Shown: positions 24,410-63,929 of the stretch, piece by piece | How the letters are laid out: each line of letters opens with the position of its first letter | Numbering within the stretch: position 1 is the first letter of the stretch | Origin: Simkaniaceae bacterium | GTDB lineage: Bacteria > Chlamydiota > Chlamydiia > Chlamydiales > Simkaniaceae | Assembly: GCA_050248615.1 (NCBI GenBank) | Contig: JBFWSA010000005.1 | Span: forward strand, 1,843 to 65,842 | DNA length: 64,000 nt | Direction of reading: 5' to 3' | Program-made: the position numbers and the translations under genes | Notes under the pieces: generated by a model | Told to the model about the DNA's origin: nothing | What the model saw: only the letters and a program-made list of their open reading frames with translations | The model's database searches: none

Positions 24410-24895
24410 ATGGAAGGGAAAACACCTGCAGTCACTGCAATTCATGATCATACTTACCGGATCTTTCCCAATGACCTGAACGCGCAAGGGACGGTCTTTG
24501 GAGGGCTCATCATGGCAGAAGCCGATCGCTTAGCCCATATCGTGGCGGAAAGACATAGCAGCCGGATCTGCGTGACGGCTTCGGTCGACTCTATTGTCTT
24601 TCATGCCCCAGCAGGGCATGGAGATAATTTAATTTTCCAAACCTCCATCAACCGTTCTTGGCATAGCTCGATGGAAGTCGGGGTAAAAGTCACCGCTGAA
24701 GAACGCCTGACATTAGAGCGCAAGCATATTGCCTCAGCCTATCTCACCTTTGTTGCTTTAAATGATCATGGCAAGCCTGTCTCCGTACCACCTGTCCTTC
24801 CTGAATCTGAAGAGGAAAAGCGTCGCTTCAATGAAGCAGATTTGCGCAGAAAAAACCGGATTTCTCTTAAAAAACAAAAATTAGAACTTAGCTAG
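24410..24895 (+). CDS. acyl-CoA thioesterase (hotdog fold, YciA-like)
   Basis: 161 aa. PNDLNAQGTVFGGLIMAEADRLA motif. The stop TAG is formed with the first bases of the next element. Confidence 0.8.
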   Translation: MEGKTPAVTAIHDHTYRIFPNDLNAQGTVFGGLIMAEADRLAHIVAERHSSRICVTASVDSIVFHAPAGHGDNLIFQTSINRSWHSSMEVGVKVTAEERLTLERKHIASAYLTFVALNDHGKPVSVPPVLPESEEEKRRFNEADLRRKNRISLKKQKLELS

Positions 24896-25055
24896 ATAGT
24901 GTCGTCATGAGATGGACATTTAAGAAGTGGCTCCTATGAGGAAATTTCAAGGCGACCGATGGAGAAAGCCTAAATGGGGCTTTTGAAGCAGGTCAACGAT
25001 GAAATTTTCCATAGGAGCCACTTCTTAAATGTCCATCTCATGACGACACTATCTA
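24893..25055. mobile_element. foldback MITE-like element, family FB-C (163 bp including terminal TA)
   Basis: TAGATAGTGTCGTCATGAGATGGACATTTAAGAAGTGGCTCCTATG... has its perfect ~45-nt inverse at the other end. Single copy in this window. Confidence 0.65.
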
Positions 25056-25064
25056 AGACCCCTT

Positions 25065-25228
25065 GAACCTATCCAGTATTTAAGATATTTTTTTATTCCA
25101 CGCTTTTTGGCATCTTTTCCATTTTCATTTTGACCTCTTGTCTCATGGACAATGTGATCAAAATGAAAATGGAAAGTCTGTTCAAAAATCGAAGAAATCA
25201 AATAAATCCTTAAATACTGGATAGGTTC
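25065..25228. mobile_element. foldback MITE-like element, family FB-E (164 bp)
   Basis: GAACCTATCCAGTATTTAAG...CTTAAATACTGGATAGGTTC. An internal CCATTTTCATTTTGA block is also inverted. Single copy in this window. Confidence 0.65.
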
Positions 25229-26577
25229 TTGATAAAAGGCCAACTTTTAGAAAACAGCATCATATCAAAGTAAACCCCGTTATCCCAAAACTGGTGATTT
25301 GTTATGCTTGTTTTTAGCTGAGCCATGACGCTATTTCCATCATCTTCATGGTCTATATAACTCTCCATAATGGCTTGCCCTACTTGGATTAAATGGGCAA
25401 GAGTCTCTCCATGCAAGCTCGTAAAGCCAGCATTTTCTAACCCTTGCAAAGCGACAAGATAAGCACCTACCGTAGCAAATTGATTCCGATCTCCAAAAAT
25501 GCTCACTCCATTGTTACCAAACCAGCTTGGATTAGGATCATAATGGATGGTAATTGTCCCTGCATTAAAGGCAGCTTCCATAACAGCGTTTAATAAATCT
25601 CCTGCATCTTTATAAAAGGAAGACCCTTTGTGATCTGAATTAGAAAGGAAGTTTCCAAGATACAAGATCGATCGAACAAGGGAAGCATTGTTATCGGGAG
25701 TTCCTTGATTTGTAGCTAAATCCTGAGCAGCATTCAGTTCATGCGCAATATAGCTCAGGGTTGCTTTTTGAATTTTTTCCCCTTCAAGGGTTTTCCCCTT
25801 CTGATTGCAATAGTCAATAATGGTTTGAACTGCATCAAAATCAACATAATCGTAAAAAACCCCCATCGGATTGTTCCAAACGGTGTCATTAGCCCCCCAG
25901 TGATTGCCTGGAGTCCATTCTCCACTTGCGGTGATATCTCCATTCACAAGTCCTTCAATCCCCTTATCGATAAGAGGTGTTAAAAAATCTGCTAGCGTTT
26001 CAAAAACAGAAGCTCCTTGGATCAGAGCACCTAGTGCCATAATATCTGCGTCCAATGCAGACCCTTTATCAACAATGGAAACTTGACATCCCGATGTTAC
26101 ATTATAGGCCCAAGGAATAAGTCCATCATCAAGCCCTTGGTTAGCAAGAAAAGCATATCCATTTGCTAAACCCGTAAAAAGTTCTTGATTTAGCGAACTT
26201 ATACTCAAACAACTTCAAAAGTTGGTTTTGGGCTAGCGCGAAAGCTTTCGAAATTCGTCGATCTTAAACGACCTAATATTAGAAATATGAGGTCATTTAA
26301 GATCGGCAAATTACGGTGCTTTGGCGCAGCCGAAAATCCAACTTTTGAAGTTGTTTGAGTATACAGCATAACTGAGCATCATCCCCATCGCTTCAGACGT
26401 ACAGTTACTTTGACCATTTCCCCCAACCGGAAATATTCCGCTTGTCGTACTTTGACAAAGAGTCGTTTGATTCACAACGATTTCCTCAGCAAAAGGAAAG
26501 GGATGATAGTCATAAGAAAACAGAAGTGCTTGAGTACATAGAAAAAGATAAAAAGATAATTTTTTGTTTCGTAACAT
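25210..26577 (-). pseudogene. glycoside hydrolase family 8-like (endoglucanase/chitosanase type) gene interrupted by FB-A
   Basis: ORFs 26311..26577 (signal peptide ... TSEAMGMMLSYAV, cf. the GH8 SEGQGYGM Glu motif) and 25210..26208 (ALDADIMALGALI, cf. the GH8 Asp signature) share one frame. They are separated by the 164-bp element. The last 5 codons and the stop come from FB-E. Confidence 0.65.
26200..26363. mobile_element. foldback MITE-like element, family FB-A (164 bp) inside the GH8 gene
   Basis: Near-identical to 24193..24356 in the same orientation. TATA at both ends; net insertion 162 bp if TA is the duplicated target. Confidence 0.9.
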
Positions 26578-26698
26578 GAATAAAGCCTAAGTTTGAATCG
26601 AATACATGAGGAAAGCATTTGGATAAAAAGAATTGTTGTCAACACTATCAGAAGTTTTGGGGTTCTCAATAACCCTTCAATTTTCTATAATCCTAATC

Positions 26699-26962
26699 AT
26701 GTTAGAAATTGCCCAAATTAAAAATGCTATTTTAGAAATCGTGAGAGATGCGGATGTGAAAATTACCAATCCTCCGCGTGACGGATTGCACTTTGAAGCT
26801 ATCGTGATCTCTTCTCTATTTGAAGGAAAGAGTTTAGTCGAGCAACACCAACTGGTGATGAATGCTCTAAAAGACTTATTTAGTACCACCCTCCATGCTC
26901 TGAGTCTAAAAACCTATACCCCCAAGGAATGGAATCGTGAGAGACATTCAACAAGAAATTAA
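26699..26962 (+). CDS. bolA: BolA family protein
   Basis: HFEAIVISSLFEGKSLVEQHQLVMNAL and LHALSLKTYTPKEW motifs. The start is taken at MLEIAQIK; the ORF is open from 26633. Confidence 0.8.
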   Translation: MLEIAQIKNAILEIVRDADVKITNPPRDGLHFEAIVISSLFEGKSLVEQHQLVMNALKDLFSTTLHALSLKTYTPKEWNRERHSTRN

Positions 26963-27245
26963 AAATGCTATTGCATCCTACCCTGTCATTTTATTCATGA
27001 AGGGTTCTAAGCAAATGCCCCTATGTGGTTTTTCTGCCCGCGTTGTCGACGTTTTATGTCGCTTTGCGATCGATTTTGAAACGCGCGATGTTTTGAAAGA
27101 TGACCTTTTACGACAAGGCATCAAAGACTATTCGAACTGGCCCACACTTCCTCAGCTTTACATTCAAGGAAAGTTTATTGGAGGGTGCGATATTGTGATG
27201 GAGCTCTATGCCAATGGCAAGCTCCAAGAACTTTTAGGAGGCTAA
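26937..27245 (+). CDS. grxD: monothiol glutaredoxin (Grx4/GrxD type)
   Basis: 102 aa. CGFS active site, WPTLPQLYIQGKFIGGCDI. Classic BolA-Grx pairing. Confidence 0.9.
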   Translation: MRDIQQEIKNAIASYPVILFMKGSKQMPLCGFSARVVDVLCRFAIDFETRDVLKDDLLRQGIKDYSNWPTLPQLYIQGKFIGGCDIVMELYANGKLQELLGG

Positions 27246-27346
27246 CATGGGAAAGTCTATTGAAGGGTATGCCCCCATCGCCCCTCAACCTCAGCGCAAT
27301 GCCCTTAAACGAACCGATTGTTGTTCTTTGAGAATGATGCTTCAGT

Positions 27347-28582
27347 TTGGAACCTATATTCTTAATCAAGGACTCCCCTTTCAAAACGTTAAATCGACTG
27401 TCTGTTCTTCTTGTAGAAAGTGGGAAATTAAAACCTATGGCAACCGCCGACTCAATCATTTGTTCATGGGGGAGCAACCCTAAGCTTATGGATGATCCGA
27501 CGAGTGAACTTTCAGATCTTTTTCTTCACCGAGGATGGGTGATCCCTGTTGTGATCATCTTAAGTCTAACTCTTGTTGTGCACTTTTTGATCAGTCGGTT
27601 TTACAATCGCGTCTATTCTCGATTAGAAAAAACCCATTTAACTTGGGACTCGGCTCTACTCAAAGCCTTGATTCGTCCTTTAAAAGTGATGGTCTGGATT
27701 TTTGGCCTAACTTTTTCGATTCAACTGCTTGCTTTTCACTTTGAAAAAGATAGTTTAATCGAACTCTTTCGCCCTTTTCGTAACTTCTCGTTTGTGGTAG
27801 TCATCCTCTGGTTTTCCCTCCGATTTATCAAAAATATGGAGGTCGATTGTATACGAGAGCAAAGAGAACAGAAGAAAAAGTATGATAAAACAACGGTTCG
27901 CGCCATCTGCCAAATTTCACGCATTGTGGTGGTTTTAATCGCCACTCTCGTCTACTTACAAACCCGCAATGTCAATATCTCTGCTGTCCTTGCTTTTGGG
28001 GGAGCTGGAGGTTTGATTGTGGGTTTAGCCGCAAAAGATCTCCTCGCCAATTTCTTTGGAGGGCTGATGATCTACCTCGATCGCCCCTTTTCTGTGGGTG
28101 ATTGGATCCGCTCCCCCGATCGTGAGATCGAAGGGTATGTCGAAAATATTGGGTGGAGACTCACCCGCATCCGTACCTTTTCTAAGCGCCCTATCTATGT
28201 TCCGAATGGGATATTTTCCAATATTTCTGTAGAAAACCCCTCCCGTATGTCTAATCGACAGATCAAAACTCATGTGGGGATCCGCTACGCAGATGCTTCT
28301 AAGATGGGATTGATTCAACGGGAAGTCGAAGAGATGATTCGCAGCGACCCTGAAATCGATACCGATAAATTTTTAATGGTCCGCTTTGATGAGTTTGGTC
28401 CCTCTTCTCTCAATTTCTTGATCTACTGCTTCACAAAAACGACCAAGTGGGCAGACTACATGCTCGTGCAACAAAATATCTACCTAAAAACTATTGAGAT
28501 TATCGAAAAACATGGCGCAGAGTGCGCTTTCCCCACCACCACACTCCACATTCCCGATGGGATCTCCCTCAAGCAACAATGA
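27347..28582 (+). CDS. mechanosensitive ion channel (MscS family)
   Basis: 411 aa. TM helices followed by LANFFGGLMIYLDRPFSVGDWI and the beta-domain. The true start is uncertain; later Met codons are possible. Confidence 0.85.
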   Translation: MEPIFLIKDSPFKTLNRLSVLLVESGKLKPMATADSIICSWGSNPKLMDDPTSELSDLFLHRGWVIPVVIILSLTLVVHFLISRFYNRVYSRLEKTHLTWDSALLKALIRPLKVMVWIFGLTFSIQLLAFHFEKDSLIELFRPFRNFSFVVVILWFSLRFIKNMEVDCIREQREQKKKYDKTTVRAICQISRIVVVLIATLVYLQTRNVNISAVLAFGGAGGLIVGLAAKDLLANFFGGLMIYLDRPFSVGDWIRSPDREIEGYVENIGWRLTRIRTFSKRPIYVPNGIFSNISVENPSRMSNRQIKTHVGIRYADASKMGLIQREVEEMIRSDPEIDTDKFLMVRFDEFGPSSLNFLIYCFTKTTKWADYMLVQQNIYLKTIEIIEKHGAECAFPTTTLHIPDGISLKQQ

Positions 28583-29253
28583 ATGAAGTCTACTTTATTT
28601 TTCACATTGTTTTGCTTGTTAGCTTCATCTTCTTAGCTCTTAGGCTTGGGAAGGAGGCTCTCATGAGCTGCTTTGCTATCCAAGTCATATTAGCTAATCT
28701 GTTTGTGATTAAGCAGATGGTATGCTTCGGTCTTCATGTCACATGTGCAGATGTCTATAGCATTGGAGCCCTTTTCTCCCTGAACTTACTTCAGGAATAT
28801 TATGGAAAAAGATGCGCCAAAAAAACGATTTGGACGGTCTTTTTTCTCCTTTTTTTCTTCATTATTATGTCCCAAATGCACCTACTGTATCGCCCCTCTG
28901 AGTTCGACATAATGCATCGGGCTTATGTGGCAATTTTAGGATACGCCCCACGCATTATGCTCTCCTCCTTTTTTGTCGCCCTTTTCACCCAAAAACTCGA
29001 TGTGGAACTCTTTGGATTTCTCAAAAAAAAGCTCTTAGGAAAAGGGTTACTCTTCCGTTTTGGAGGAGTTTCAATCCTCACACAACTACTCGATACGGTT
29101 CTTTTTAGCTTCCTTGCGCTCTATGGGATTGTACATAGCCTGGGAGATATCATCGTGATGAGCTACCTCATCAAAGTGATTGTGATCCTCTGCATCGCCC
29201 CTTTTACAACTTTAGCCAAACGTTTGGTTCGCCATGACCCCCTTCAAATTTGA
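28579..29253 (+). CDS. yhhQ: queuosine-precursor transporter (YhhQ/VUT family)
   Basis: Polytopic membrane protein with an SILTQLLDTVLFSFLA motif. The start MNEVYF at 28579 forms an ATGA overlap with the mscS stop. Confidence 0.75.
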   Translation: MNEVYFIFHIVLLVSFIFLALRLGKEALMSCFAIQVILANLFVIKQMVCFGLHVTCADVYSIGALFSLNLLQEYYGKRCAKKTIWTVFFLLFFFIIMSQMHLLYRPSEFDIMHRAYVAILGYAPRIMLSSFFVALFTQKLDVELFGFLKKKLLGKGLLFRFGGVSILTQLLDTVLFSFLALYGIVHSLGDIIVMSYLIKVIVILCIAPFTTLAKRLVRHDPLQI

Positions 29254-30364
29254 ACTCCTTCACACCTCAACCCAATCCCGTGCACGAGTGGGACGCATCC
29301 ATACCCCGCACGGAGTGATTGACACGCCCAATTTTGTTGCTGTAGGAACAAACGGAACCCTTAAAGCCCTCGATAATGCAATGGTGTCAAACATTGGTCT
29401 CCAGCTCATGTTCTGCAACACCTATCATTTGCTCTTGCAACCAGGCCCTGAGGTGATTGAAAAAGCAGGGGGAATCCATCGTTTTATCAACCGCAACCTG
29501 CCGATTATTACAGACTCTGGAGGCTTCCAGGTCTTTAGTCTAGCTTATGGATCTGTTGCCGATGAACTCAAAAGTAAAGGGACGAAAAAACATGGGGGAT
29601 CCGTGATGAAAATCACGGATGAGGGGGTCCTTTTCCGCTCTTACCGCGATGGACGCTCGATCCTTTTAACTCCTGAATCTTCCATCGCCACACAAAAATC
29701 ATTCGGTGCAGACATCATCATTCCTTTTGATGAACTTCCTCCCTACCACATCGATCCTCAAGCTTTGCAGCTCTCACTAGATCGTACCCATCGTTGGGAA
29801 AAACGCTCTTTAGAAGCCCATCTCAAACATCCTAATGGACAGGCTATGTATGGTGTCATTCATGGAGGGATCGATGATGCTCTCAGGGAAAAAAGTTGCG
29901 CCTTCTTAAGTCAACTTCCCTTTGATGGATTTGCGATTGGTGGAAGCATGGGAAAAACAAAAGGGGAAATGGTTTCGATGCTCACCTCCCTGCTCCCCAA
30001 GCTCCCTCCAGAAGCCCCCAACCATCTACTCGGGATTGCCGATTTAACATCTCTTGCAGCCTGTGTCCCCTTAGGAATCGATACTTTTGATAGCTCGTAT
30101 CCGACCAAGGCTGCCCGTCATGGAACTCTACTCACCCCTTCTGGAGGAATGAAAATCTCCAGAGGAAAACATCGCGATGAATTTATGCCCATCCAGGAAG
30201 CGTGCAGCTGCTTCACTTGCCAAAACTATTCAAGGGCGTATCTCCATCATCTTTTCAAAGCCAAGGAATTGACTGCAATGACCCTTGCATCGATTCATAA
30301 CCTCCATTTTATGGTGGACCTTATGGCATCTTATAGACAAAAAATCTTTTTAAATATTATATAA
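29234..30364 (+). CDS. tgt: tRNA-guanine transglycosylase
   Basis: 376 aa. TDSGGFQVFSL, GFAIGG, zinc site CSCFTCQNYSRAYLHHL. Confidence 0.95.
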   Translation: MTPFKFELLHTSTQSRARVGRIHTPHGVIDTPNFVAVGTNGTLKALDNAMVSNIGLQLMFCNTYHLLLQPGPEVIEKAGGIHRFINRNLPIITDSGGFQVFSLAYGSVADELKSKGTKKHGGSVMKITDEGVLFRSYRDGRSILLTPESSIATQKSFGADIIIPFDELPPYHIDPQALQLSLDRTHRWEKRSLEAHLKHPNGQAMYGVIHGGIDDALREKSCAFLSQLPFDGFAIGGSMGKTKGEMVSMLTSLLPKLPPEAPNHLLGIADLTSLAACVPLGIDTFDSSYPTKAARHGTLLTPSGGMKISRGKHRDEFMPIQEACSCFTCQNYSRAYLHHLFKAKELTAMTLASIHNLHFMVDLMASYRQKIFLNII

Positions 30365-30448
30365 ACATTTAATAAACATAATTTTAATAAATATTATTAA
30401 TTAAATATTATGATACAATAATTAAGCGTCCGACTAAAAAGAGGTCAT

Positions 30449-32140: not shown

Positions 32141-32197
32141 CCTATAGCAACCCCTTCTGTTACCATTTATCTAAAATCGTAAATTCAAAAAAATATT

Positions 32198-33930: not shown

Positions 33931-34014
33931 TAAGTCTTTTAAATATCCTGATTCAGAGATAGAAAAACTTGAAATACATTTACTAGCGAATAGGAACCTC
34001 CTAGTTTAAATGAT

Positions 34015-34049
34015 TATACTCAAACAACTTCAAAAGTTGTTTGAGTATA
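34015..34049. repeat. short (35 bp) perfect palindromic form of FB-A
   Basis: TATACTCAAACAACTTCAAAAGTTGTTTGAGTATA. It encodes the last 9 codons and the stop of the GH1 gene on the minus strand. Confidence 0.8.
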
Positions 34050-35540: not shown

Positions 35541-35556
35541 AAATCCCCCAAGAAAA

Positions 35557-35633
35557 TGGTGCGGTTACCAAGACTTGAACTTGGGACCTCGACATTATCA
35601 GTGTCGCGCTCTAACCAACTGAGCTATAACCGC
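35557..35633 (-). tRNA. tRNA-Ile (anticodon GAT), CCA encoded
   Basis: The reverse complement folds as a cloverleaf: acceptor GCGGTTA/TAACCGC, D stem GCTC/GAGC, anticodon stem CGACA/TGTCG with loop CTGATAA, T stem CCAAG/CTTGG, 3' ACCA. Confidence 0.95.
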
Positions 35634-35649
35634 TAAGCGTTGTGGAAAA

Positions 35650-35722
35650 TGGAGGCTAGGAGAGTCGAACTCCTGACCTTCTGAATGCAAATCAGACGCT
35701 CTACCAACTGAGCTAAGCCCCC
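35650..35722 (-). tRNA. tRNA-Ala (anticodon TGC), CCA not encoded
   Basis: Cloverleaf: acceptor GGGGGCT/AGCCTCC with the G3:U70 alanine identity pair, anticodon stem TCTGA/TCAGA with loop TTTGCAT, T stem AGGAG/CTCCT. Confidence 0.95.
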
Positions 35723-39632: not shown

Positions 39633-39775
39633 TAGTGCCCCGTCATGAAAATTCTTAATGTTTGGGCTGACGTGAAAGTTCCCGTGATTTGTCGAATACA
39701 GCTAACCTTAAGATCGACAAAGCTCGGGATTTTGATGCAGCCGAAACATCAATCATTTTCGTGACGGGGGCACTA
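39633..39775. mobile_element. foldback MITE-like element, family FB-D (143 bp including terminal TA)
   Basis: TAGTGCCCCGTCATGAAAATTCTTAATGTTTGGGCTG...CAGCCGAAACATCAATCATTTTCGTGACGGGGGCACTA. Its last three bases are the complement of the typA stop codon. Confidence 0.75.
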
Positions 39776-41650: not shown

Positions 41651-41814
41651 TATACTCAAACAACTTCAAAAGCTGGTTTTGGGCAAGCGCGAAAGCTTTC
41701 GGAATTTGTTGATCTTAAGTGACCTAATATTAGAAATATGAGGTCAATTAAGATCGGTAAATTACGGTGTTTTGGCGCAGTCGAAAATCCAACTTTTGAA
41801 GTTGTTTGGGTATA
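41651..41814. mobile_element. foldback MITE-like element, family FB-A (164 bp)
   Basis: TATACTCAAACAACTTCAAAAGCTGG...CCAACTTTTGAAGTTGTTTGGGTATA, in the same orientation as 24193 and 26200. It lies between the divergent typA and trkH genes. Confidence 0.9.
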
Positions 41815-41850: not shown

Positions 41851-43401
41851 ATGCAACATTTTAGGCAAAAAATTCATTGGCAAGCGATCCTCGGGCAGAT
41901 GGGGCTCCTACTCCATGTCCCCGGATGCATGGCTTGGATAACAGTGGGGATTTGCTCTCTTTTCCAAGAATGGGATGCCATCCTCCCTTTTGGTGTGACA
42001 GGAGCCCTAGGGATAGGTCTAGGCCAAATTTTGTACCGCGGAAGCCTAAAAGCCCAAGAGGCTCACCTTTGGGATGCCATGGTCATTGCAGCCTTGGGAT
42101 GGATTTTTTGCTCTTTCCTTGCAGCCATCCCTCTTTATTGGGTTTGCCATATACAATTGGCTCAAGGGGTAGAATCCGAAGTGATGCGCGTCTTTTCCCA
42201 CCCCATCAACGCCCTATTCGAAGGTTTTTCAGGTTATACCAGTACAGGCCTTACGATGATGCAACGGGAAGGTCCCTTTCCCCATTGCCTTGAGTGGTGG
42301 CGCTCCTTCTTACAATGGACTGGAGGATTAGGTCTCGTTGTTTTTGTCCTCGCCCTTACCCACCTGAATAAGGAGGGATACCAACTTTATTATGCCGAAG
42401 CACATTCGGAACAAATGTCACGCAATATTAGACAAACAGCTCACCGGATATGGGCGATTTATCTCTGTTACACTTTTGTGGCCTTTCTCCTTTTTTTCAG
42501 TGCAGGGATGCCCCTTTGGGAAGCGATTAACCACGCCATGACAGCCATCTCTACGGGAGGATTTACCGTGACCTCCACGAACTTTCAGGGCTATTCTGCC
42601 GGCATTCAAATCATTGCCCTACTTATCATGGTGATCGGATCTATTAGCTTTGCAGTGCATTTTCAAGTGATCCACGATCGCAACTTGAAAATACTGTGGA
42701 AAAGCCTCCAACACCGCCTTCTCTATCTCTTCGTGATAGGGGGAGGAATTCTCACCCTTCTCCTCAACTTGTGGAATGGAAGTCAAGGGCACTACATGGG
42801 CTCAATTTTTGAGTGGGTCTCAGCCCTCACAACTTGCGGTTATAACGCTGTTTCTCTCTCTTTTTTTAGCCCCATGGTCAAACTTTTGCTCATCATCGGT
42901 ATGTTTATGGGAGGAGCTACAGGTTCTACGGCTGGAGGATTAAAAATCCGCCGCCTCCTTTACCTTGTCAAAGGCATTTACCTTCGCCTCTCTTCCCTAA
43001 CACAAAAAAACGAAAAAGAAATTTTAGAAGAATATAATCCCGCAAAATCTCCCTCTCAAGAAGAACCGCCCGGAACCCTCCTGTTACGCAAAACGCAAAG
43101 TGAGCGGTTAATCACGGCAGAAGTTCTTTTCTCACTCTGGGCTGCAACCATTTTTTTAGGATGGTTTCTGATTTTAAAGTGGACTCCTAAGGGAGGAGCT
43201 CTAGATGCCCTTTTTGAGGTGACCAGTGCTATGAGCAATGTAGGGCTCAGTAGTGGCATTGTTAGCCCCGATTTCTCTACAGCAGGAAAGATTATTTTTA
43301 TGTTGTTGATGTGGGTGGGAAGGCTAGAAATAATTCCCGCACTCGTGTTACTTTTAACTTTACCAATGACGCTTAGAAATAATACCATTTCTGAAAAATA
43401 A
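41851..43401 (+). CDS. trkH: TrkH/KtrB-family potassium uptake membrane protein
   Basis: Polytopic, with repeated pore-loop-like segments (SGYTSTGLTM, AISTGGFTV, ALTTCGYN, MSNVGLSSG). The ATG at 41851 is chosen because the longer ORF begins inside the FB-A element. Confidence 0.85.
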   Translation: MQHFRQKIHWQAILGQMGLLLHVPGCMAWITVGICSLFQEWDAILPFGVTGALGIGLGQILYRGSLKAQEAHLWDAMVIAALGWIFCSFLAAIPLYWVCHIQLAQGVESEVMRVFSHPINALFEGFSGYTSTGLTMMQREGPFPHCLEWWRSFLQWTGGLGLVVFVLALTHLNKEGYQLYYAEAHSEQMSRNIRQTAHRIWAIYLCYTFVAFLLFFSAGMPLWEAINHAMTAISTGGFTVTSTNFQGYSAGIQIIALLIMVIGSISFAVHFQVIHDRNLKILWKSLQHRLLYLFVIGGGILTLLLNLWNGSQGHYMGSIFEWVSALTTCGYNAVSLSFFSPMVKLLLIIGMFMGGATGSTAGGLKIRRLLYLVKGIYLRLSSLTQKNEKEILEEYNPAKSPSQEEPPGTLLLRKTQSERLITAEVLFSLWAATIFLGWFLILKWTPKGGALDALFEVTSAMSNVGLSSGIVSPDFSTAGKIIFMLLMWVGRLEIIPALVLLLTLPMTLRNNTISEK

Positions 43402-43526
43402 AATCGCATTTGGCAAGGAGGCAGCACAAATTTTTGTATCTGGAGCGAGCGACCATTGCCCAGCGGCAAGGCGCGAGTGAAGACTAAAAATTTGTTGCTA
43501 AGTCGACATAGTCAAATGCGACTTTA
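43399..43526. mobile_element. foldback MITE-like element, family FB-F (128 bp including terminal TA)
   Basis: TAAAATCGCATTTGGCAAGGAGGCAGCACAAATTTTTGT...ACAAATTTTTAGTC...CAAATGCGACTTTA with imperfect full-length arms. Its first three bases are the trkH stop TAA. Single copy in this window. Confidence 0.55.
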
Positions 43527-43550
43527 TTTTTGATAAATGGTATAACTCCC

Positions 43551-52132: not shown

Positions 52133-52138
52133 CGCACA

Positions 52139-54356: not shown

Positions 54357-54849
54357 CTTGTTTAGGACCTTTTAGAAGTCTTTTGAATATAGCATAAAAG
54401 AATCCTACTAAAATACCAAAAACAAGATGGCTAATGATCGAATTTACCACTTCCCCGATGGCGGCATCACTCCAACGGTAATTGGGGGAAATAGAGAAGA
54501 AAAGAGGCATCAGATAAAACGGAGTAATCAGCCACCAAACCATTCCAAAGACTGCCCCCAACCAAACGCCTCTCCATAGATTTTTCACAAGTTTCTGAAA
54601 AATCAGGGAAAAAAGAATTCCCAAAACAGTTGCAGTAAAAAAATGCCCGATATAAATGATCACATTTTCACTCACCCCATAAGCCTGCCCTACCAATTCA
54701 TAGACCTTCATTTGGTCTAAAACAACCATAAGGAGCATCGGAGGAATGATCTGCGTATGCATCCAAAGGAGCATTACAATCATACCGGTTAGGAGCCCTG
54801 CAATCGCCCCCAATAACACATTTAATAAAATAGAAGCCTTCTTCGTCAT
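54343..54849 (-). CDS. hypothetical integral membrane protein
   Basis: 168 aa, four to five hydrophobic helices. Overlaps the start of the downstream fusion gene by 14 nt. Confidence 0.5.
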   Translation of the reverse strand: MTKKASILLNVLLGAIAGLLTGMIVMLLWMHTQIIPPMLLMVVLDQMKVYELVGQAYGVSENVIIYIGHFFTATVLGILFSLIFQKLVKNLWRGVWLGAVFGMVWWLITPFYLMPLFFSISPNYRWSDAAIGEVVNSIISHLVFGILVGFFYAIFKRLLKGPKQDDRK

Positions 54850-54906
54850 AATTTATACATAACACCTCTTTGAAAAAAAAAAGAACTCTAGCTATCTAAT
54901 AAAGTT

Positions 54907-57575: not shown

Positions 57576-57642
57576 AAAAAATATTGATTAATAATCCCTA
57601 AATCTTACAGACTTGCAGCCTTTCAAAAAATAAGGACCACTT

Positions 57643-58524
57643 ATGGCTGTAGCAATTGCTTATCCTGTAAAAATTAATGATGTACCAGAGTTCCCCCCTC
57701 CCTCAAAAAAAATGGATCCTCTGCCAAAAATAGAGGAACGTCTTCCGCAAGCAACAACGATTAAATGGGGAGACAAGATTTACATCCTGCATGACCAATC
57801 GGTTTCCTATTTACATAATGGTCAAGCCGCACAGCTCCTCATGCGAAAAACAAGAATGGCCGCTCCGACGACAATGGAACTTTCTCTAAATGGCTTTGTA
57901 TTGGGATTGCCGAATGGAAAAGTAGAGGTTTGGGATATCCATGGGAGTCGCACTTCCCTACATGCTTTTGAGGCTGAAGCCTCTCAGGTTAATTCTATTG
58001 ATACGCTGGGGCACTCGATTTTGTGTGGAACCAATCAGCTTTCTTTAGTCGATACCCGTCAAGCTGACGCTCCTTGGACGATTTGGGACCATCATAGGTC
58101 TCCAGTCCAATCTGTTTCTTTTGTTTCCGAGACAATTTTTACCTCAGGGAGTGAAGACACACTGAAATTGTGGGATAGTAGAACACGTAGACCTCTTGTA
58201 ACCATCGAGAGAAATATCACAGCCCTCGATTGGTTTGGACCCCGCATGATTTCTGCAGGGAGTGATAACGTTGTCCGCCTTTGGGAACTTACATCCACCT
58301 CTTTTGCGGAAAGAGAAACCTATGAACTCCCTTGCTCTACAGTCTATCTTACGCGCACTTGTGCGGTTGCCTTAAGTACAAATCATGTCTATATCCGTTC
58401 GGGTGAGGAAGTGAAACTGCAAAAATTGCAAAATCCCTATCCCCCTTCTGCCTTAAGTCCTAATCGCGACTACTTAGTGACACAAGATGCCTCTGGCTAC
58501 ATAACCTTTTTTAAGCTTGCTTGA
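57643..58524 (+). CDS. WD40-repeat protein
   Basis: 293 aa. Repeat ends such as TSGSEDTLKLWD, SAGSDNVVRLWE and GKVEVWD. Confidence 0.7.
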   Translation: MAVAIAYPVKINDVPEFPPPSKKMDPLPKIEERLPQATTIKWGDKIYILHDQSVSYLHNGQAAQLLMRKTRMAAPTTMELSLNGFVLGLPNGKVEVWDIHGSRTSLHAFEAEASQVNSIDTLGHSILCGTNQLSLVDTRQADAPWTIWDHHRSPVQSVSFVSETIFTSGSEDTLKLWDSRTRRPLVTIERNITALDWFGPRMISAGSDNVVRLWELTSTSFAERETYELPCSTVYLTRTCAVALSTNHVYIRSGEEVKLQKLQNPYPPSALSPNRDYLVTQDASGYITFFKLA

Positions 58525-58550
58525 GAATTATCCTCCCGCTATGAAAATAA

Positions 58551-59462
58551 TTGATGCTGCGAAAGTACTTGTTGCCCACTTTTGCTTTCATGGGGCTACT
58601 CCTAGCCCTTTTTATGGTTTTTTACGGAGCGAGAAAACCACCCACTCCCCCCATCCTTTTTCCCCCTCCTGTTCCTCCCTATAAACATTACGTTGCTGGA
58701 GCAGGGATTGTTGAAGCCGCTTCTGAAGATATCAGCATTGGAACCCCTTTCAATGAACTCGCAACAGATGTCTATGCAAAAGTAGGGGATCAAGTGACCA
58801 AAGGAACCCCTCTTTTTAAACTTGATACGCGTACCCTTGTTGCCGAATACGAAGAGGCCCAGCAAAAACGGGATGTTGCTTACACAAATTTCCAAGATCA
58901 AGCTACGCAGCTTTCTCTCTATCAAAACCTCAAAGATAAGCGCGCGGTGAGTGAAAATGCCTTTAATCAGCGCTACTATGCTGCAGAACTCGCACAAAAA
59001 GAGCTAAAAGAAGCGGAAGCGGCGCTAGAGGTGATCGCCTCAAAAATTGAACGCTCGACCATCCGTGCCCCCTTAGATGGGGAAATCTTGCAAGTCAATG
59101 TGCGTGTTGGTCAGTCGGTAGATGTCAACCCTTTCGATAACAAACCCCATATGCTTTTTGGGGTAACAAATCCTCTTCATATCCGTGTTGAAGTAGATGA
59201 AGCCGACTCCTGGCGCGTGCAAAAAGGGGCCCCTGCTGTTGCCTATGTTCGAGGGAATAGTTCGATCAAGGTAGACTTAAATTTTCTCTATATCGAACCC
59301 TATATCATTCCTAAAACAGCTCTCACAGGGGATAATCAAGAACGTGTAGATACACGGGTCCTTCAAGTGATTTATGAATTTGACCGAGAAAATCTCCCGA
59401 TTTATACAGGACAACTCATGGACGTATATATTAAAGGGCTTCCCTCCAATGAAAAGTTTTAA
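58551..59462 (+). CDS. HlyD/MacA-type periplasmic adaptor of a tripartite efflux system
   Basis: 303 aa. N-terminal anchor helix, lipoyl-like motif (GDQVTKGTPLFKLD), coiled-coil hairpin, then IRAPLDGEILQVNVRVGQ. Confidence 0.8.
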   Translation: MMLRKYLLPTFAFMGLLLALFMVFYGARKPPTPPILFPPPVPPYKHYVAGAGIVEAASEDISIGTPFNELATDVYAKVGDQVTKGTPLFKLDTRTLVAEYEEAQQKRDVAYTNFQDQATQLSLYQNLKDKRAVSENAFNQRYYAAELAQKELKEAEAALEVIASKIERSTIRAPLDGEILQVNVRVGQSVDVNPFDNKPHMLFGVTNPLHIRVEVDEADSWRVQKGAPAVAYVRGNSSIKVDLNFLYIEPYIIPKTALTGDNQERVDTRVLQVIYEFDRENLPIYTGQLMDVYIKGLPSNEKF

Positions 59463-60837
59463 ATGGATTCCCTTACTCTTCCTCACAGGATGTGCTGTCG
59501 GCCCTGATTATCAAACGCCCCAAGTGACCCTCCCCTCCCATTATGATACTACAGAAGATACAGGAGAACTAGATGCAGGAGAGCTGCAGCATTGGTGGAC
59601 TGCTTTTAATGATCCTCTACTCGATGTCCTCATCCATGAAGCTCTTTCGCAAAACTTCGATCTTCGTATCGCTGTTGAAAAAATCCATGAAGTGCGCGCC
59701 CTTTACCAAATCCAAGCGGCTGAGCTTTGGCCCAAAGTCGATCTGAATGGTGAAGTGACACGTGAAAGAGTGAGCCAAAGCCTTTTTGACTCCCCCTTTC
59801 TAGGGCCTCCTGTCCAAAGTCTCTATCGCGTCGGTTTTGATGCGAGTTGGGAGGTTGATATTTTTGGAAAACGGCGCCGCGAAAAAGAGGCCGCTTACTA
59901 TGAATATGAAGCCGAAGTTGAAAATGCGCGGGGTGTTTATATCACTCTTCTCAGCGAAGTTGCTGCAAACTATATCGAGATTCGGGCCTTTCAACAAAAA
60001 ATTTCCCTATCTGAGCGGGATATCTACATTCGTAAAGAGCTTCTGACACTCTCAGAGTCTCTTTTTCGTGCAGGACTCTCCAGCGAAATTGACGTGGAGC
60101 TTTTGCGCATTGGCTTAGAAGAAGCCCGCGCAGCTCTTCCGACACTCCAAACGGGTTACCGTCAAACGCTCAACCGCTTAGCCGTATTACTCGGAAAACC
60201 CCCAGAAAGTCTCCATGAAGAATTCACGGAGCGTCGCCCTATTCCTAGCAACCCTAACGCCATTCCCGTCGGTCTCCCCTCTGATCTTCTCAGAAGGCGT
60301 CCCGATATCCGACAAGCTGAGCGCACCCTTGCTGCTGCAACGGCAAATTTAGGTTCGGCAATAGCTGATCTTTTTCCCCGTTTTTCCCTCCTCGGGGCTT
60401 TTGGCTTTGATGGAGACCATGTGAACAATTGGATCCAAGCGCAAAGCCGCACCTGGACCTTAGGACCCACAATGCAATGGCCCATCCTCTATTTTGGACG
60501 TATCCGCTCTAATATTCGCGCTCAAAATTCTGTCCAAAAGCAAGCCCTATTAAGCTATGAGCAAACCCTTTTAACCTCCCTAGAAGATGTAGAAAACGCC
60601 CTGATTGCTTACTACAAAGAAGAGGAGCGAAAAAAGTATTTTGAAAAGCAAGTCGAGGCAGCAAAACGTCAGTATGCACTCAGCCGTGACCTTTACCTTT
60701 CAGGACTCTCCGATTTTTCAACATTTTTAGAAGCTGATCAAACCCTTGTAGAAGCAGAAACAAATCTCGTTAATAGTGAAGAAGGGTTTAGCACAAAATG
60801 CGTCGCCCTTTACAAAGCGTTAGGAGGAGAATGGTAA
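59449..60837 (+). CDS. outer-membrane efflux lipoprotein (NodT/TolC family)
   Basis: Lipobox LLFLTGC then AVGPDYQTP, the typical NodT N-terminus. Two TolC-like repeats and a C-terminal LYKALGGEW. The start is taken at MKSFKW. Confidence 0.85.
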   Translation: MKSFKWIPLLFLTGCAVGPDYQTPQVTLPSHYDTTEDTGELDAGELQHWWTAFNDPLLDVLIHEALSQNFDLRIAVEKIHEVRALYQIQAAELWPKVDLNGEVTRERVSQSLFDSPFLGPPVQSLYRVGFDASWEVDIFGKRRREKEAAYYEYEAEVENARGVYITLLSEVAANYIEIRAFQQKISLSERDIYIRKELLTLSESLFRAGLSSEIDVELLRIGLEEARAALPTLQTGYRQTLNRLAVLLGKPPESLHEEFTERRPIPSNPNAIPVGLPSDLLRRRPDIRQAERTLAAATANLGSAIADLFPRFSLLGAFGFDGDHVNNWIQAQSRTWTLGPTMQWPILYFGRIRSNIRAQNSVQKQALLSYEQTLLTSLEDVENALIAYYKEEERKKYFEKQVEAAKRQYALSRDLYLSGLSDFSTFLEADQTLVEAETNLVNSEEGFSTKCVALYKALGGEW

Positions 60838-60838
60838 C

Positions 60839-61999
60839 ATGCTTTTCTTATCGTTAAAGATTTTGATCGGAGATAAAGCCAAATTTATTGGGATCATCTT
60901 AGGCCTTAGCTTTTCGGCTTTGATCATCACCCAACAAGCGGCCATCTTTGTAGGGCTCATGACCCGCACCTTTGGATTTATCACTGACACGTCTCAGCCT
61001 AACATTTGGGTGATGGATGAAAAAGTGCGTTACATCGATGACATGAAACCGCTCAGAGACACGCAGCTTTATCAAGTGAGAGGGATAGAAGGGGTCGAGT
61101 GGGCCGTTCCTTTTTATAAAGGTCTTCTGAAGGCGCGCCTGCGCAATGGAAATTTCCAAATGTGTAATGTGATTGGCATTGATGATGCGACACTCATTGG
61201 AGGTCCCCCTCGGATGCTTGAGGGAGAATTGACCGACCTTAGACTCACTGATGCCATCATTGTGAATAAGGAAGGGGCCAATGACAAACTCGCTATCGAT
61301 GCAGGAAGAAATGGAAGGAATCTCATTCCCCTCCAAGTGGGAGAAACCCTTGAAGTCAACGACCACCGCGCAAAAGTGGTGGGTATTTGTGAAACAACCC
61401 GCACCTTCCAGTCTCAGCCCGTGATCTATACGACCTATTCACGTGCCACGACCTTTGCCCCTTTCGAGCGGAAGCTGCTCTCCTATGTTTTGGTAAAATC
61501 TAAACCAGGAGTCGACCCTCAAGTTCTCTGTCAAAGGATCGGTCAGTACACGGGACTCAAAGCCTATACCAGCCCAGCATTCAAAAAATTAACCGTTGAA
61601 TACTATATGTGGCAAACCGGAATCCTCTTAAATTTCGGGGTGGCAGTCTTTTTAGGGTTTGTCATTGGGGTCGCCATTTCAGGCCAAACCTTCTATAACT
61701 TTATTCTGGATAATTTGCGCTTCCTCGCCACCTTTAAAGCCATGGGAGCGAATAACCGCCTCCTGACAAAAATGGTGCTTCTCCAAGCCGCTTGGGTGGG
61801 ATTTATCGGATGGGGATTAGGCATTGGAATCGCTGCCCTTTTCGGTATTCTTTCGCGCAATAGCCCCTTATCCTTCTTGCTCCCTTGGGAACTTTATGCG
61901 CTGAGTTGCGTGGTGATGTTTTTGATTACCGGTCTTGCAGCCTGGATTGGGCTCTACCGGGTGTATCGGGTCGACCCTGCCATCGTGTTTAAGAGTTAA
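60839..61999 (+). CDS. ABC transporter permease (DevC/MacB FtsX-like)
   Basis: 386 aa. N-terminal TM helix, large periplasmic domain, three C-terminal TM helices (FtsX domain). Confidence 0.8.
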   Translation: MLFLSLKILIGDKAKFIGIILGLSFSALIITQQAAIFVGLMTRTFGFITDTSQPNIWVMDEKVRYIDDMKPLRDTQLYQVRGIEGVEWAVPFYKGLLKARLRNGNFQMCNVIGIDDATLIGGPPRMLEGELTDLRLTDAIIVNKEGANDKLAIDAGRNGRNLIPLQVGETLEVNDHRAKVVGICETTRTFQSQPVIYTTYSRATTFAPFERKLLSYVLVKSKPGVDPQVLCQRIGQYTGLKAYTSPAFKKLTVEYYMWQTGILLNFGVAVFLGFVIGVAISGQTFYNFILDNLRFLATFKAMGANNRLLTKMVLLQAAWVGFIGWGLGIGIAALFGILSRNSPLSFLLPWELYALSCVVMFLITGLAAWIGLYRVYRVDPAIVFKS

Positions 62000-62002
62000 T
62001 CT

Positions 62003-62701
62003 ATGGATAATGTCGCCGTAAAATGTGAAAAAATTCATAAATCCTTCGGAGAAGGAGCCCTCCGTTTTGAAGTCCTCCATGGGGTCAACCTAGAGGTAAA
62101 ACGGGGAGAGCTGCTCATGTTAGTGGGCCCTTCAGGTTCGGGGAAAACGACATTGATCTCTATTATCGCGGGCATTCTTGGCTACGACGCAGGAGAGTGC
62201 ACGATTTTTGGCCACAATCTCAATACCCTATCCGACGCAGAAAAAACCATCTTTCGGGGAAAAAATCTGGGGTATGTTTTCCAAGCATTCAATCTTATTC
62301 CCATGCTTTCCAATGCCGAAAACGTTTCTATTCCTCTTCTCTTAAATGGAGTCGAGCGCCTAGAAGCTCTCAGGCAAGCCAAAGAGCGCTTAGAACAATT
62401 TGGTTTGGGGGATAAAACCAACACCTATCCTAACGAGTTATCAGGAGGGCAGCAACAGAGAGTTGCCATCGCACGCGCTGTGATTCATAACCCTGATCTC
62501 ATCGTCTGTGACGAACCTACCAGCGCTTTAGACCACGAAAATGGAACCCTTGTGCTCAAACATTTGCGTGAAATTGTCACTAAAGAAAACCGCGCCCTGA
62601 TCGTCGTCACCCATGACTCCCGCATTTTTGAATTTGCCGACCGTATCGTTCACATGGAAGATGGGGTCATCACAGAAACCAAAGAAAATCACAACCACTA
62701 A
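62003..62701 (+). CDS. ABC transporter ATP-binding protein (DevA/MacB/LolD type)
   Basis: 232 aa. Walker A GPSGSGKTT, signature LSGGQQQR, Walker B LIVCDEPTSALD. Confidence 0.95.
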   Translation: MDNVAVKCEKIHKSFGEGALRFEVLHGVNLEVKRGELLMLVGPSGSGKTTLISIIAGILGYDAGECTIFGHNLNTLSDAEKTIFRGKNLGYVFQAFNLIPMLSNAENVSIPLLLNGVERLEALRQAKERLEQFGLGDKTNTYPNELSGGQQQRVAIARAVIHNPDLIVCDEPTSALDHENGTLVLKHLREIVTKENRALIVVTHDSRIFEFADRIVHMEDGVITETKENHNH

Positions 62702-62722
62702 CGCACAATGCGGGTTATTTTA

Positions 62723-62886
62723 ACGCGTATTCTGACTTAAATCTTTATCAAAAGGATTAGATTTTTGATGAGATTTTCAGAAAAATCTGCGAAGGAGATA
62801 GCCAAAGCGCTATCTTCGAGCAGTTTTTCCTGAAAAGATCGCAAAAAGATAGCCCTTTTCATAAAGATTTAAGCCAGAATACGCGT
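62723..62886. mobile_element. foldback MITE-like element, family FB-B copy B (164-bp core, TA on both flanks)
   Basis: ACGCGTATTCTGACTTAAATCTTTATCAAAAGG...CCTTTTCATAAAGATTTAAGCCAGAATACGCGT. The central block GATTTTTGATGAGATTTTCAGAAAAATCTGCGAAGGAGATAGCCAAAGCGCTATCTTCGAGCAG matches copy A. Confidence 0.85.
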
Positions 62887-63929
62887 TACTTGAGCCCGGT
62901 GCAAGTAAACCAGTCAAAAATGGCGTAATTATTATCTCCATCATTGTGGGCAGCGAAAACTCCTGTGGGATAATGAGGAGGGATGGGAAGAGCGGTGGAG
63001 GCAATGCCATCACTGCGCCACACATCATGGAGGGCAAAGGATTTGATAAATTTATTCTTTCCTTCCCGGTTATACACCTTAAAGGTGGAGTCTCCTTGAC
63101 TAGAGACAACGATATATCCTTTACGATTGGGTTTGCGGTAGATAGATAACCCTTCCCGGTCTCCACGAATATTATCTTGGACTCCAAACATTTGGATGAA
63201 AGGATCTTTCCCAACGGAAGGATCGGCAAAGTATTTCAAAATGGCATGTCTTTCATCGGAACAGTAAAAATACCCCCATTCATCATCCGCTACCATCCCT
63301 TCAACAAAACTCTTTTGATCTTTCTTCCCAAACTTGCGAACAATGGTCCCTTTAAACTTTCCCGTTCCATCATCTTCAAGCATAATCTGATGAATATTGT
63401 CTGTCTCTTTCCGTGAAAGAAAAGCAAAAAGCTGTCCATCAGATAGACGTTTGTACAAGCAAATCCCGTAGGTTCTGTCGGGAAATCCAGAAGAGATTCC
63501 ACCAAGCGTTGTAATATCAATGAGTTTGCGCGTCTCTTTATCCATCTTGAAAATTTTCATCTCATTGGTGCTCCGTATCCCACACGCCACCACATCGATC
63601 ACCTCCCCTCCAAGATTGACATCATAACGGACACTGACCCCTACAGGACGATTGAGGCGCTCGGAACGACTTACCTGCTTACCACTCATATCAAACACAT
63701 AGAGAGCTCCCATAGGAGCTTTATCATTGCAAATAAGAACACTATTGATCGGGTTATCACGATCTGCCCAAATAGCCACTTCATCTGCCCTTCCAGGAAG
63801 AGAGCGGGTCTTGGCTCGAGAACGGGCCCCTTCTCTTGTGGCACGATGCCGAAAATCTGCGCACCCCACAAAAAAAAGGGGAAGAAGGAGTATCCAAAAA
63901 GGAATTAAAGACGTTTTCTTGCGATCCAT
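62886..63929 (-). CDS. beta-propeller phytase (3-phytase) lipoprotein
   Basis: 347 aa. Lipobox LFFVGC. ADEVAIWADRDNP, VEGMVADDEWGYFYCSDE and REGLSIYRKPNRKGYIVVSSQGDSTFKVYNREGKN match the Bacillus PhyC-type BPP blocks. Confidence 0.85.
   Translation of the reverse strand: MDRKKTSLIPFWILLLPLFFVGCADFRHRATREGARSRAKTRSLPGRADEVAIWADRDNPINSVLICNDKAPMGALYVFDMSGKQVSRSERLNRPVGVSVRYDVNLGGEVIDVVACGIRSTNEMKIFKMDKETRKLIDITTLGGISSGFPDRTYGICLYKRLSDGQLFAFLSRKETDNIHQIMLEDDGTGKFKGTIVRKFGKKDQKSFVEGMVADDEWGYFYCSDERHAILKYFADPSVGKDPFIQMFGVQDNIRGDREGLSIYRKPNRKGYIVVSSQGDSTFKVYNREGKNKFIKSFALHDVWRSDGIASTALPIPPHYPTGVFAAHNDGDNNYAIFDWFTCTGLK

Follow-up and report, generated by a model that had tools for sequence, protein, structure and literature searches.

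Miniature TA-duplicating foldback elements at stop codons and gene ends in a Simkaniaceae genome

Miniature transposable elements (MITEs) that duplicate a TA target have been described in several bacteria, including Correia/NEMIS in Neisseria, RUP in S. pneumoniae (IS630-Spn1) and ERIC/IRU in enterobacteria (PMC2229807). Other small repeats are known to reach into genes at their ends. In the pneumococcus, 36 coding sequences take their stop codon from a BOX element with no evident truncation (PMC3049150), and in Coxiella burnetii QMITE1 and QMITE2 overlap functional genes by 1 to 50 bp and only at the 3' ends, altering the C-terminal residues (PMC5896051). Here we describe foldback elements at gene ends in a Simkaniaceae MAG, in a window that comprises the whole 64,000-nucleotide stretch of DNA analysed.

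Thirteen copies were recognised in the window (Table 1): 11 are whole-length foldbacks, 143-168 nt long, and two are collapsed forms of 35 nt. They fall into families A to F; additional copies and more families are present in the flanks. Complementarity between the arms is 80-100% across 31-47 nt, and each element makes a single hairpin along its whole length, with end-to-end folding of all copies giving dG of -58 to -114 kcal/mol and z of -8 to -19. Collapsed forms are known for FB-A. At less than 300 bp the elements contain no transposase gene, and every frame is short or interrupted except for one FB-A frame, which is open and has no start codon. FB-A-like peptides were also seen in a protein of Simkania negevensis Z. 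Rfam identified two tRNAs only in the window and did not match the foldbacks. No autonomous transposon with matching termini was found in the sequence covered, and the flanks yielded a single transposase fragment, of the IS110 type. The sole hint of an autonomous partner is P0176, a protein that has an HTH_33 domain of the IS630 type and itself bears an FB-A insertion. Assignment to RAYT-mobilised REP/REPIN sequences or to IS200/IS605-derived palindromes was rejected: these are recognised as 20-40-nt palindromes with GTAG or CGTC heads, or by insertion at a fixed tetranucleotide without duplication, and the elements here are 143-168 nt long, have inverted repeats reaching the termini and duplicate a TA or TAA target. 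The foldbacks are non-autonomous TA-duplicating MITEs of several families, presumably mobilised by an IS630-type transposase.

Table 1. Foldback copies in the window, with coordinates and placement.
Element	Coordinates	Length and form	Placement
D2 (FB-D)	9777..9943	167 nt, TAGTGCC...GGCACTA	in 242-aa gene; some strains only
A1 (FB-A)	19018..19181	164 nt	divergent 5'-5' spacer
Short FB-A form	19853..19887	35 nt, two termini joined	in loop of another hairpin
B2 (FB-B)	20152..20319	168 nt	inside or at end of hypothetical ORF
A2 (FB-A)	24193..24356	164 nt	42 nt past formyltransferase stop; some strains only
C1 (FB-C)	24893..25055	163 nt, 46-nt perfect arms	on thioesterase stop
E1 (FB-E)	25065..25228	164 nt	termini without TA; possible CTTG duplication
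A3 (FB-A)	26200..26363	164 nt	splits 401-aa gene; some strains only
Short FB-A form	34015..34049	35 nt	on former GH1 TAA stop, minus strand
D1 (FB-D)	39633..39775	143 nt	on typA stop, minus strand
A4 (FB-A)	41651..41814	164 nt	divergent typA/trkH 5'-5' spacer
F1 (FB-F)	43383..43542	160 nt	duplicated TAA at 43380-82 and 43543-45; some strains only
Possible collapsed B-type terminus	62699..62717	TAACGCACAATGCGGGTTA	starts on ABC-transporter TAA stop; weak call
B1 (FB-B)	62721..62888	168 nt	on phytase stop, minus strand

Mobility was established by comparing filled and empty alleles in strains about 99.5% identical, among which seven insertions differ. A2, A3, D2 and F1 are absent in some of these strains, and the families are therefore active TA-duplicating MITEs, still moving in this Simkaniaceae population. 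The empty site of A3 has a single TA (L004), and the insertion leaves ORFs of 332 aa and 88 aa. D2 divides its gene into ORFs of 126 aa and 116 aa, and the D2-empty alleles (L043, L044, L046, L047, L050 and L051) have 165 nt fewer and a single CTAG, compatible with TA duplication. Exceptions to the TA pattern are F1, which duplicates a TAA that is single in the empty allele; A2, which is not in L004, L005 or L007-L012 and whose empty allele reads AA; and E1, whose termini lack TA. An additional FB-A was found in L054, 3 nt past an OMP stop, where the window has TA and the left copy is mutated to CA in L054, and L059 carries a 328-nt element whose duplication, TAATA, includes a stop. The recent insertions are scattered: two are within genes (A3 and D2), one is eight codons before a stop (F1), and the rest adjoin stops or lie 3-42 nt after them. 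Recent copies can be harmful, as the splitting of genes by A3 and D2 demonstrates, and the copies common to all strains occupy harmless positions.

In the initial annotation, four full-size copies began on the TA of a stop codon, namely those of thioesterase (24893-24895), typA (39773-39775), trkH (43399-43401) and phytase (62886-62888). All four stop codons are present, and the docking is exact for C1, D1 and B1; the trkH stop is internal to F1. C1 opens TAGATAG, the first three bases of which are the thioesterase stop codon. Excision of C1 in silico leaves AGC TAA and two overlapping convergent genes that both end in the palindrome TTAGCTAA; the palindromic ends of C1 supply a TAG to each. 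D1 ends in ...GGCACTA; read on the minus strand, the TA-G at this end serves as the typA stop. A relative without D1 (L053) has TAG at the same typA codon, and the far flank of D1 is TA-C, not the TA-G expected for a simple TA duplication in TAG. B1 ends in ...ACGCGTTA, where the TA-A read on the minus strand forms the phytase stop; the left end of B1 is 19 nt past the ABC-transporter stop. A 93% relative (L067) has a B copy with different arms on the same phytase stop, and its B-arm sequence TAACGCGCAATGCGCGTTA resembles the possible collapsed terminus in the window. C1, D1 and B1 are fixed across all strains sampled. The proposal that TA-G and TA-A termini regenerate the stop was borne out: the site left by excision of C1 or B1 reads TAA, and with the element in place its TA-G or TA-A supplies the stop again. 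The ancestral stop under C1, B1 and the GH1 short FB-A form was probably TAA. Across 93 genes in about 100 kb, six of the nine TAG stops lie in element sequence.

Other copies rewrite the end of a gene. The FB-F inverted repeat spans 43382-43543 and does not start at the trkH stop. Five element-free alleles (L016, L017, L020, L022 and L054) read ...AGAAATAACTCTCATGG, and because they define the insertion point F1 proper can be delimited as TACCATTT...AAATGGTA, bounded by the duplicated TAA. By these alleles, and contrary to the docking first proposed, the TAA that F1 entered is out of frame and lies eight codons upstream of the trkH stop. The present stop is 17 nt inside F1; the C-terminus, RNNSHGKKS* in the 517-aa form that overlaps the next gene, is now RNNTISEK*. 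The suggestion that GH1 reads through FB-A, a TA-T family, proved correct. The 35-nt palindrome is identical to the FB-A termini at 25/25 bases, encodes the tail YTQTTFEVV* and provides the new stop at 34020-34022; removal of the element and one TA gives ...CTT TTT TAA and restores the GH1 stop. The same element has a 1-nt indel in a relative (L052), where the tail is ILK*. The stop of the convergent gene at 25210-26208 (minus strand) falls 17 nt inside the right arm of E1, so the last six codons of this gene are element-derived. The TA at the right end of B2 is now a decayed TG, and the element contains the TAG at which a called 97-aa ORF stops.

Docking was analysed in a 99.8-kb composite of one genome, with 15 TA-type elements, and at scattered further loci. 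Comparison with TA sites, as the initial annotation had advised, gave a result that depends on the reference set. Four of the 15 elements are exactly on a stop-codon TA, where 1.2% would be expected from all TA sites (p=2.7e-5), and the excess persists against the harmless set of intergenic and stop TA sites (4/12 docked, 9.6% expected, p=0.022). Given each element's own reconstructed spacer, 2.0 dockings are expected and the four observed are not significant (P(>=4)=0.09). Insertion sequences are biased to convergent (3'-3') intergenic regions, which is usually ascribed to selection. A like bias is seen here: element-free convergent spacer carries 10.1 elements per kb, as against 2.3 for divergent and 1.5 for tandem spacer (chi-square p=1e-4), a 4-7-fold enrichment. 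The genome is 90% coding and the median element-free convergent spacer is 9 nt; because these spacers are so short, overlap with stops becomes exact to the base. That a few TA-ended palindromes merely happen to abut TAA or TAG, with no bias at all, is highly improbable. Such a reading could point to the conditional test and to the three or four exact cases in the window, picked after the data had been viewed, but it is contradicted by the excess over all TA sites, by the convergent-spacer bias and by extra dockings (OprB, L034 and L035) in sequence outside the original claim.

TA targeting together with the survival of harmless insertions in a compact genome probably explains the coincidence with stop codons. 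The target is TA, with which two of the three stop codons begin. Since the genome is 90% coding and convergent spacers are about 9 nt, stop-codon TAs make up a large share of the harmless sites, and insertions there would be expected to persist. The base after the terminal TA then sets the outcome: C, D and B (TA-G or TA-A) restore the stop at once, and FB-A (TA-T), or entry a few codons upstream as with F1 and E1, swaps in a short tolerated tail. Selection rather than targeting appears to produce the bias. Several observations weigh against this account: more copies are docked than uniform sampling of the harmless TA sites would give, three of the seven recent insertions are close to a stop, the far flank of D1 departs from a simple TA duplication, and B-family copies dock on stops in unrelated metagenome contigs, exactly on TAA in L034 and L035 and directly after TAA in L036, which could reflect a target preference. 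Of the two alternatives offered at the outset, filtering for harmless insertions is the better supported, given the scatter of the recent insertions, the harmless positions of the copies common to all strains and the density in convergent spacers; a true preference for stop contexts is possible but less likely.

Under such a preference the transposase, or a DNA structure that it needs, would favour TA in A/T-rich stop contexts (TAA, TTAA), or dyad-symmetric DNA at gene ends; in either form docking would be fixed at insertion and not by selection afterwards. Together these two forms of active targeting are unlikely. They retain some probability from the B family, which also docks on stops in other metagenomes: its copies coincide to the base with a TAA stop at phytase, L034 and L035, three independent loci, and are 0-2 nt from a stop at two further loci (L036 and L043). 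Three of the seven recent insertions are also within 3 nt of a stop, and docking exceeds the harmless-TA null. Also in keeping with targeting are the short FB-A form at 19853..19887, whose host hairpin (TTCCAGACGG...CCGTCTGGAA) begins at the TGA stop of an HTH gene, and A2, which is nested within an older FB-A relic. However, the flanks of 12 insertions share no sequence beyond TA, the recent A3 and D2 entered gene bodies and F1 an out-of-frame TAA, FB-A copies are mostly away from stops (1/10 at a stop), and the excess loses significance once spacer size is conditioned on.

The initial annotation also placed long hairpins at the 3' ends of mRNAs, and very stable hairpins do lie at offset 0 from several stops. 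Effects of long RNA hairpins on the upstream mRNA are reported for ERIC and NEMIS. Intrinsic (Rho-independent) termination, which calls for a G+C-rich hairpin followed directly by a U-tract, was rejected: no U-tract follows the elements, there are no T runs after C1, D1 or B1, and no element was called terminator-like. Nothing here therefore favours terminator function. More generally, the host might keep copies at gene ends as domesticated hairpins that stabilise, terminate or enable processing of the upstream mRNA, which we regard as very unlikely. The fixation of C1, D1 and B1, the B copy on the phytase stop of the 93% relative, and the pairing preserved in B-family arms despite their divergence (compensatory changes in 21/68 pairs, seven copies) would fit host retention, although the needs of transposition or arm-to-arm conversion can also keep pairing. 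The lack of terminator features and the presence of the same families in 5'-5' spacers and within genes speak against it, as does the OprB 3' foldback: in the window strain only a stub of 16 nt is left of it, which marks the hairpin as dispensable there. It is also conceivable, if quite unlikely, that the TA-G and TA-A termini are themselves an adaptation, by which 'stop-safe' MITEs preferentially land or persist on TAA and TAG stops, regenerate the stop and leave the host a conserved, covarying 3' hairpin to use. If true, this would account for the high share of element-supplied TAG stops and for the B dockings in unrelated metagenomes.

The elements document active MITE families in environmental Chlamydiae (Simkaniaceae), none of which we found described in the literature searched. 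They provide a base-level example of how TA-targeting elements interact with stops, which are restored, changed from TAA to TAG or replaced along with the tail, and of overlapping convergent genes pushed apart by elements in a compact genome. The elements have also produced several of the gene ends in the region, several hypothetical small ORFs and the majority of its TAG stops, which bears on annotation.

In common with Correia/NEMIS, RUP and ERIC/IRU, which are of 100-170 bp, the foldbacks have TA at both termini, TA duplication and a stable long stem-loop, and they occur as many mostly intergenic copies with filled and empty alleles and insert into other mobile elements (PMC2229807). They differ in showing no sequence similarity to these, in their host, a Simkaniaceae chlamydia, and in the presence of at least six unrelated families of near-equal length (143-168 nt) in one genome. 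Like BOX and the QMITEs they overlap the extreme 3' ends of genes, but BOX is modular and without TA ends, the rule by which the base after TA decides between a restored stop and read-through is not set out in those papers (PMC3049150, PMC5896051), and the insertion sites here can be reconstructed from element-free alleles. Like the Rickettsia palindromic elements (RPE), FB-A adds 162 nt, or 54 codons, with one frame open throughout; a PurL-type protein (P0025) has a full in-frame FB-A between domains, the only such case seen in a recognisable protein family. In contrast to RPE, most copies here are intergenic or gene-disrupting, A3 breaking its host gene, and TA duplication, uncertain for RPE, is demonstrated. 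The pattern is an ordinary one for such elements and needs no new mechanism: the foldbacks are additions to the known TA-duplicating MITE type, with overlap of gene ends already published for BOX and the QMITEs.

An inverted-repeat scan combined with self-BLAST identified 11 full-size foldbacks in the window, hairpin elements of the families FB-A to FB-F whose termini include TATACTCAAAC, TAACGCGAATTC, TAGTGCC and TAGATAGTG. Each forms a single end-to-end hairpin, with dG values of -58 to -114 kcal/mol and z-scores of -8 to -19 relative to shuffles. Two short copies of FB-A in the window and a third in the left flank, each 35 nt long, consist of nothing but both termini joined and look like full elements from which the inner hairpin has been deleted. 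The short copy starting at 19853 occupies the loop of a second hairpin, which itself starts at the TGA stop of an HTH gene. One full-size copy, A2, is nested in an older, degenerate FB-A relic (AGCTTTCGCGTTGCC / AAACCAACTTTTGAAG), and the A2-less allele has AA at the position where TA is expected. Rfam matched two tRNAs and nothing else in the window; two tRNA genes lie immediately upstream of the GH1 gene. Part of contig JBFWXM010000007.1 (GCA_050187435.1) is identical to the window, and its proteins are annotated 'MAG: ... [Simkaniaceae bacterium]'.

Positions of foldbacks and associated features in the window and in contigs of flanking regions, other strains or relatives
Feature	Position in the window	Position elsewhere
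FB-A, full-size copy	19018 (start)	
A2, full-size FB-A	24193 (start)	
A3, full-size FB-A	26200-26363	
FB-A, full-size copy	41651 (start)	
B2, full-size FB-B	20152-20319	
B1, full-size FB-B	62721-62888	
C1, full-size FB-C	24893 (start)	
D2, full-size FB-D	9777-9943	
D1, full-size FB-D	39633 (start)	
E1, full-size FB-E	25065 (start)	
F1, full-size FB-F	43383 (start)	
FB-A, short form	19853-19887	
FB-A, short form	34015-34049	
FB-A, short form		left flank, ~15 kb before the window (L060)
A2 within FB-A relic	24150-24410	
C1 and E1 region	24880-25240	
Two tRNA genes	35560-35722, minus strand	
OprB foldback, 93% relative		L067 825-988
OprB foldback stub, window strain		right flank, L063 12796-12816
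14-nt convergent spacer, with a 328-nt element in strain ERR15459718	4593-4606	L059 6527-6870
DAGK-like/GH95-like spacer	11307-11428	L043 10940-11141
IS110-family transposase fragment		L060 14718-15047, ~11 kb left of the window

The initial annotation held that four full-size copies dock on the TA of a stop codon and regenerate it, and three of these dockings are confirmed. C1 begins with TAGATAG exactly at the TAG of the thioesterase gene, the D1 end ...GGCACTA coincides with the typA TAG, and the B1 end ...ACGCGTTA coincides with the TAA of the phytase gene. Excision of C1 or B1 with one TA leaves AGC TAA and AAG TAA, respectively, so the ancestral stop was likely TAA at both sites; judged from this excision, C1 likely turned an ancestral thioesterase TAA into TAG. 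Without C1 and E1, the 3' ends of the thioesterase gene and of a convergent gene of 401 aa overlap within the palindrome TTAGCTAA, a stop for both strands, and today each gene gets its TAG from one end of C1. At typA, a relative with 79% nucleotide identity lacks a D element and also has TAG at this codon, so the stop position is probably ancestral, with the caveat that the stop of the relative itself opens a 26-nt imperfect palindrome. Truncation of TypA by six codons, as derived from the TA-duplication rule, was dropped because of this same-codon TAG. The far flank of D1 is TA-C and the neighbouring gene differs from that of the relative, where the sulfotransferase gene is absent, so the flank has been remodelled.

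The fourth proposed docking, that of FB-F on the trkH stop, does not stand: the inverted repeat reaches 43382, and alleles without the element place the insertion upstream of the stop. Element-free TrkH (5 alleles) has 517 aa and ends in RNNSHGKKS, and its gene shares 17 nt with the next one. F1 inserted at an out-of-frame TAA eight codons before the element-free stop, and the current tail TISEK and its stop codon are element-derived. The GH1 tail YTQTTFEVV, also claimed to come from an element, is indeed encoded with its stop by a 35-nt palindrome, and excision restores ...PLF TAA. In a 96% relative, this short element is present and differs by a 1-nt indel; the GH1 protein there ends in ...FFILK in another frame, so the tail sequence itself is not conserved.

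Further overlaps with stops were found beyond these genes. A flank palindrome starting TA-TAGCT provides the TAG of a 439-aa gene, and a 177-nt foldback in the flank holds the stops of both convergent neighbours. The OprB TAG opens a 164-nt foldback (TAGACTTGATACAGGACA...) that is intact in a 93% relative and reduced in the window strain to its first 16 nt, the deletion being bounded by TTT; this locus shows how hairpins are trimmed to stubs. In other metagenome contigs, the start of a B copy falls exactly on a TAA stop (L034, L035) or immediately after one (L036). Among the 93 genes verified in the composite (the window and its flanking contigs, 99.8 kb), the stop is TAA for 56, TGA for 28 and TAG for 9, and six of the nine copies of this rarest stop lie in foldback sequence, so that the elements shape stop-codon usage in the composite.

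The composite is 90.4% coding and has 5326 TA sites, of which 613 are intergenic outside elements and 65 lie in stop codons. Exact docking is far above that of all TA sites (4 of 15 TA-type elements vs 1.2%, p=2.7e-5) and exceeds that of harmless TA sites (4 of 12 vs 9.6%, p=0.022), but the excess is not significant once the reconstructed spacer of each element is conditioned on (4 observed vs 2.0 expected, p=0.09). The real signal is a bias to gene 3' ends: element-free spacer carries 10.1 elements per kb when convergent, compared with 2.3 when divergent and 1.5 when tandem (p=1e-4), and the median convergent spacer is 9 nt after element removal. Elements whose ends read TA followed by G or A lie on stops in 3 of 5 cases vs 1 of 10 for FB-A, a difference that fits selection against read-through and is not significant (p=0.077).

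Strain comparisons indicate that the elements are mobile. A2, A3, D2 and F1 are missing from contigs of strains ~99.5% identical, and the empty sites are a single TA (A3), CTAG (D2) and TAA (F1), which identifies the foldbacks as active non-autonomous TA-duplicating elements, or MITEs. In one strain, an additional FB-A lies 3 nt past the stop of an outer-membrane-protein gene. In strain ERR15459718, a 14-nt spacer between two convergent stops has received an element of 328 nt, which has the termini CCCCGGACTGCTAG...CTAGCAGTCCGGGG and duplicated TAATA, the TAA stop included. To the left of the window, L060 has a related piece of 124 nt. Between the convergent DAGK-like and GH95-like genes, strains differ along the entire spacer, from stop to stop: the window version has 122 nt, direct repeats CCCTGATTTTCGACC and the motif TATAGCTAAAGTTGTTTAAA, and the JGI-strain version has 202 nt filled with a diverged B-like foldback. 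Recent copies can do harm, as A3 and D2 break a 401-aa and a 242-aa hypothetical gene, both intact in ~99.5% sister strains; the 332-, 88-, 126- and 116-aa 'hypothetical proteins' of the MAG are therefore fragments.

The initial annotation offered either a target preference for stop contexts or filtering for harmless insertions, and this interpretation is supported in part, on the side of filtering. Active targeting of stop contexts is a possible explanation of why B-family copies dock on stops and several recent insertions are found no more than 3 nt from one, but the target flanks share only TA and recent copies hit gene bodies too. The best supported reading is that the elements target TA and that, the genome being very compact, the insertions that survive are the harmless ones. 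The base after the terminal TA would then determine whether the gene stops at once (B, C, D) or gains a short new tail (A, F, E).

Seven FB-B copies were compared, two from the window and those of L034, L035, L036, L043 and L067. Conservation extends over the core of ~100 nt and the first 12 nt, and arm positions ~13 to 35 vary yet remain paired, with 21 of 68 pairs compensatory. This strong covariation shows the pairing to be important for the element and is no proof of its importance for the host. In the 93% relative, the B copy at the phytase stop differs in its arms and follows an incomplete duplicate of a B right arm plus CTT. Use of the element by the host as a 3' hairpin is unsupported, for although copies lie at gene ends, no U-tracts were found at the elements, the same families also occur in 5' regions and within genes, and the OprB hairpin has been deleted to a stub. 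Terminator and promoter scans of the elements gave nothing above shuffled controls.

No partner transposon was identified for the foldbacks. A part of the left flank where spacers are unusually long contains three foldbacks and a 109-aa piece of an IS110-family transposase (Transposase_20). Peptides resembling FB-A were found in a protein of Simkania negevensis Z and also within one that has an IS630-type HTH_33 domain. Scanning a genome collection that lacks the source genome for the FB-A terminus gave only two foreign matches, and searching metagenomes for the FB-B core gave four contigs only; translated elements joined into a protein query of 1379 aa gave one match, random words dominating. 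A 3.4 kb Logan contig encodes a PurL-type FGAM synthase, P0025, with a complete in-frame FB-A of 54 codons (YTQTTSKVGFSPPP...PTFEVAWV) between its PurS-like part and the remaining protein.

A literature search found no publication describing such elements in Simkaniaceae, and the foldbacks are new families of an already known type of element. Their architecture matches that of Correia, RUP and ERIC, which are bacterial TA-ended MITEs (PMC2229807), and the in-frame FB-A of P0025 resembles the Rickettsia palindromic elements. Overlap of repeats with gene ends has likewise been described before, as 36 genes of the pneumococcus have their stop encoded by BOX (PMC3049150) and the QMITEs of Coxiella reach 1 to 50 bp into functional genes, at the 3' end only (PMC5896051).
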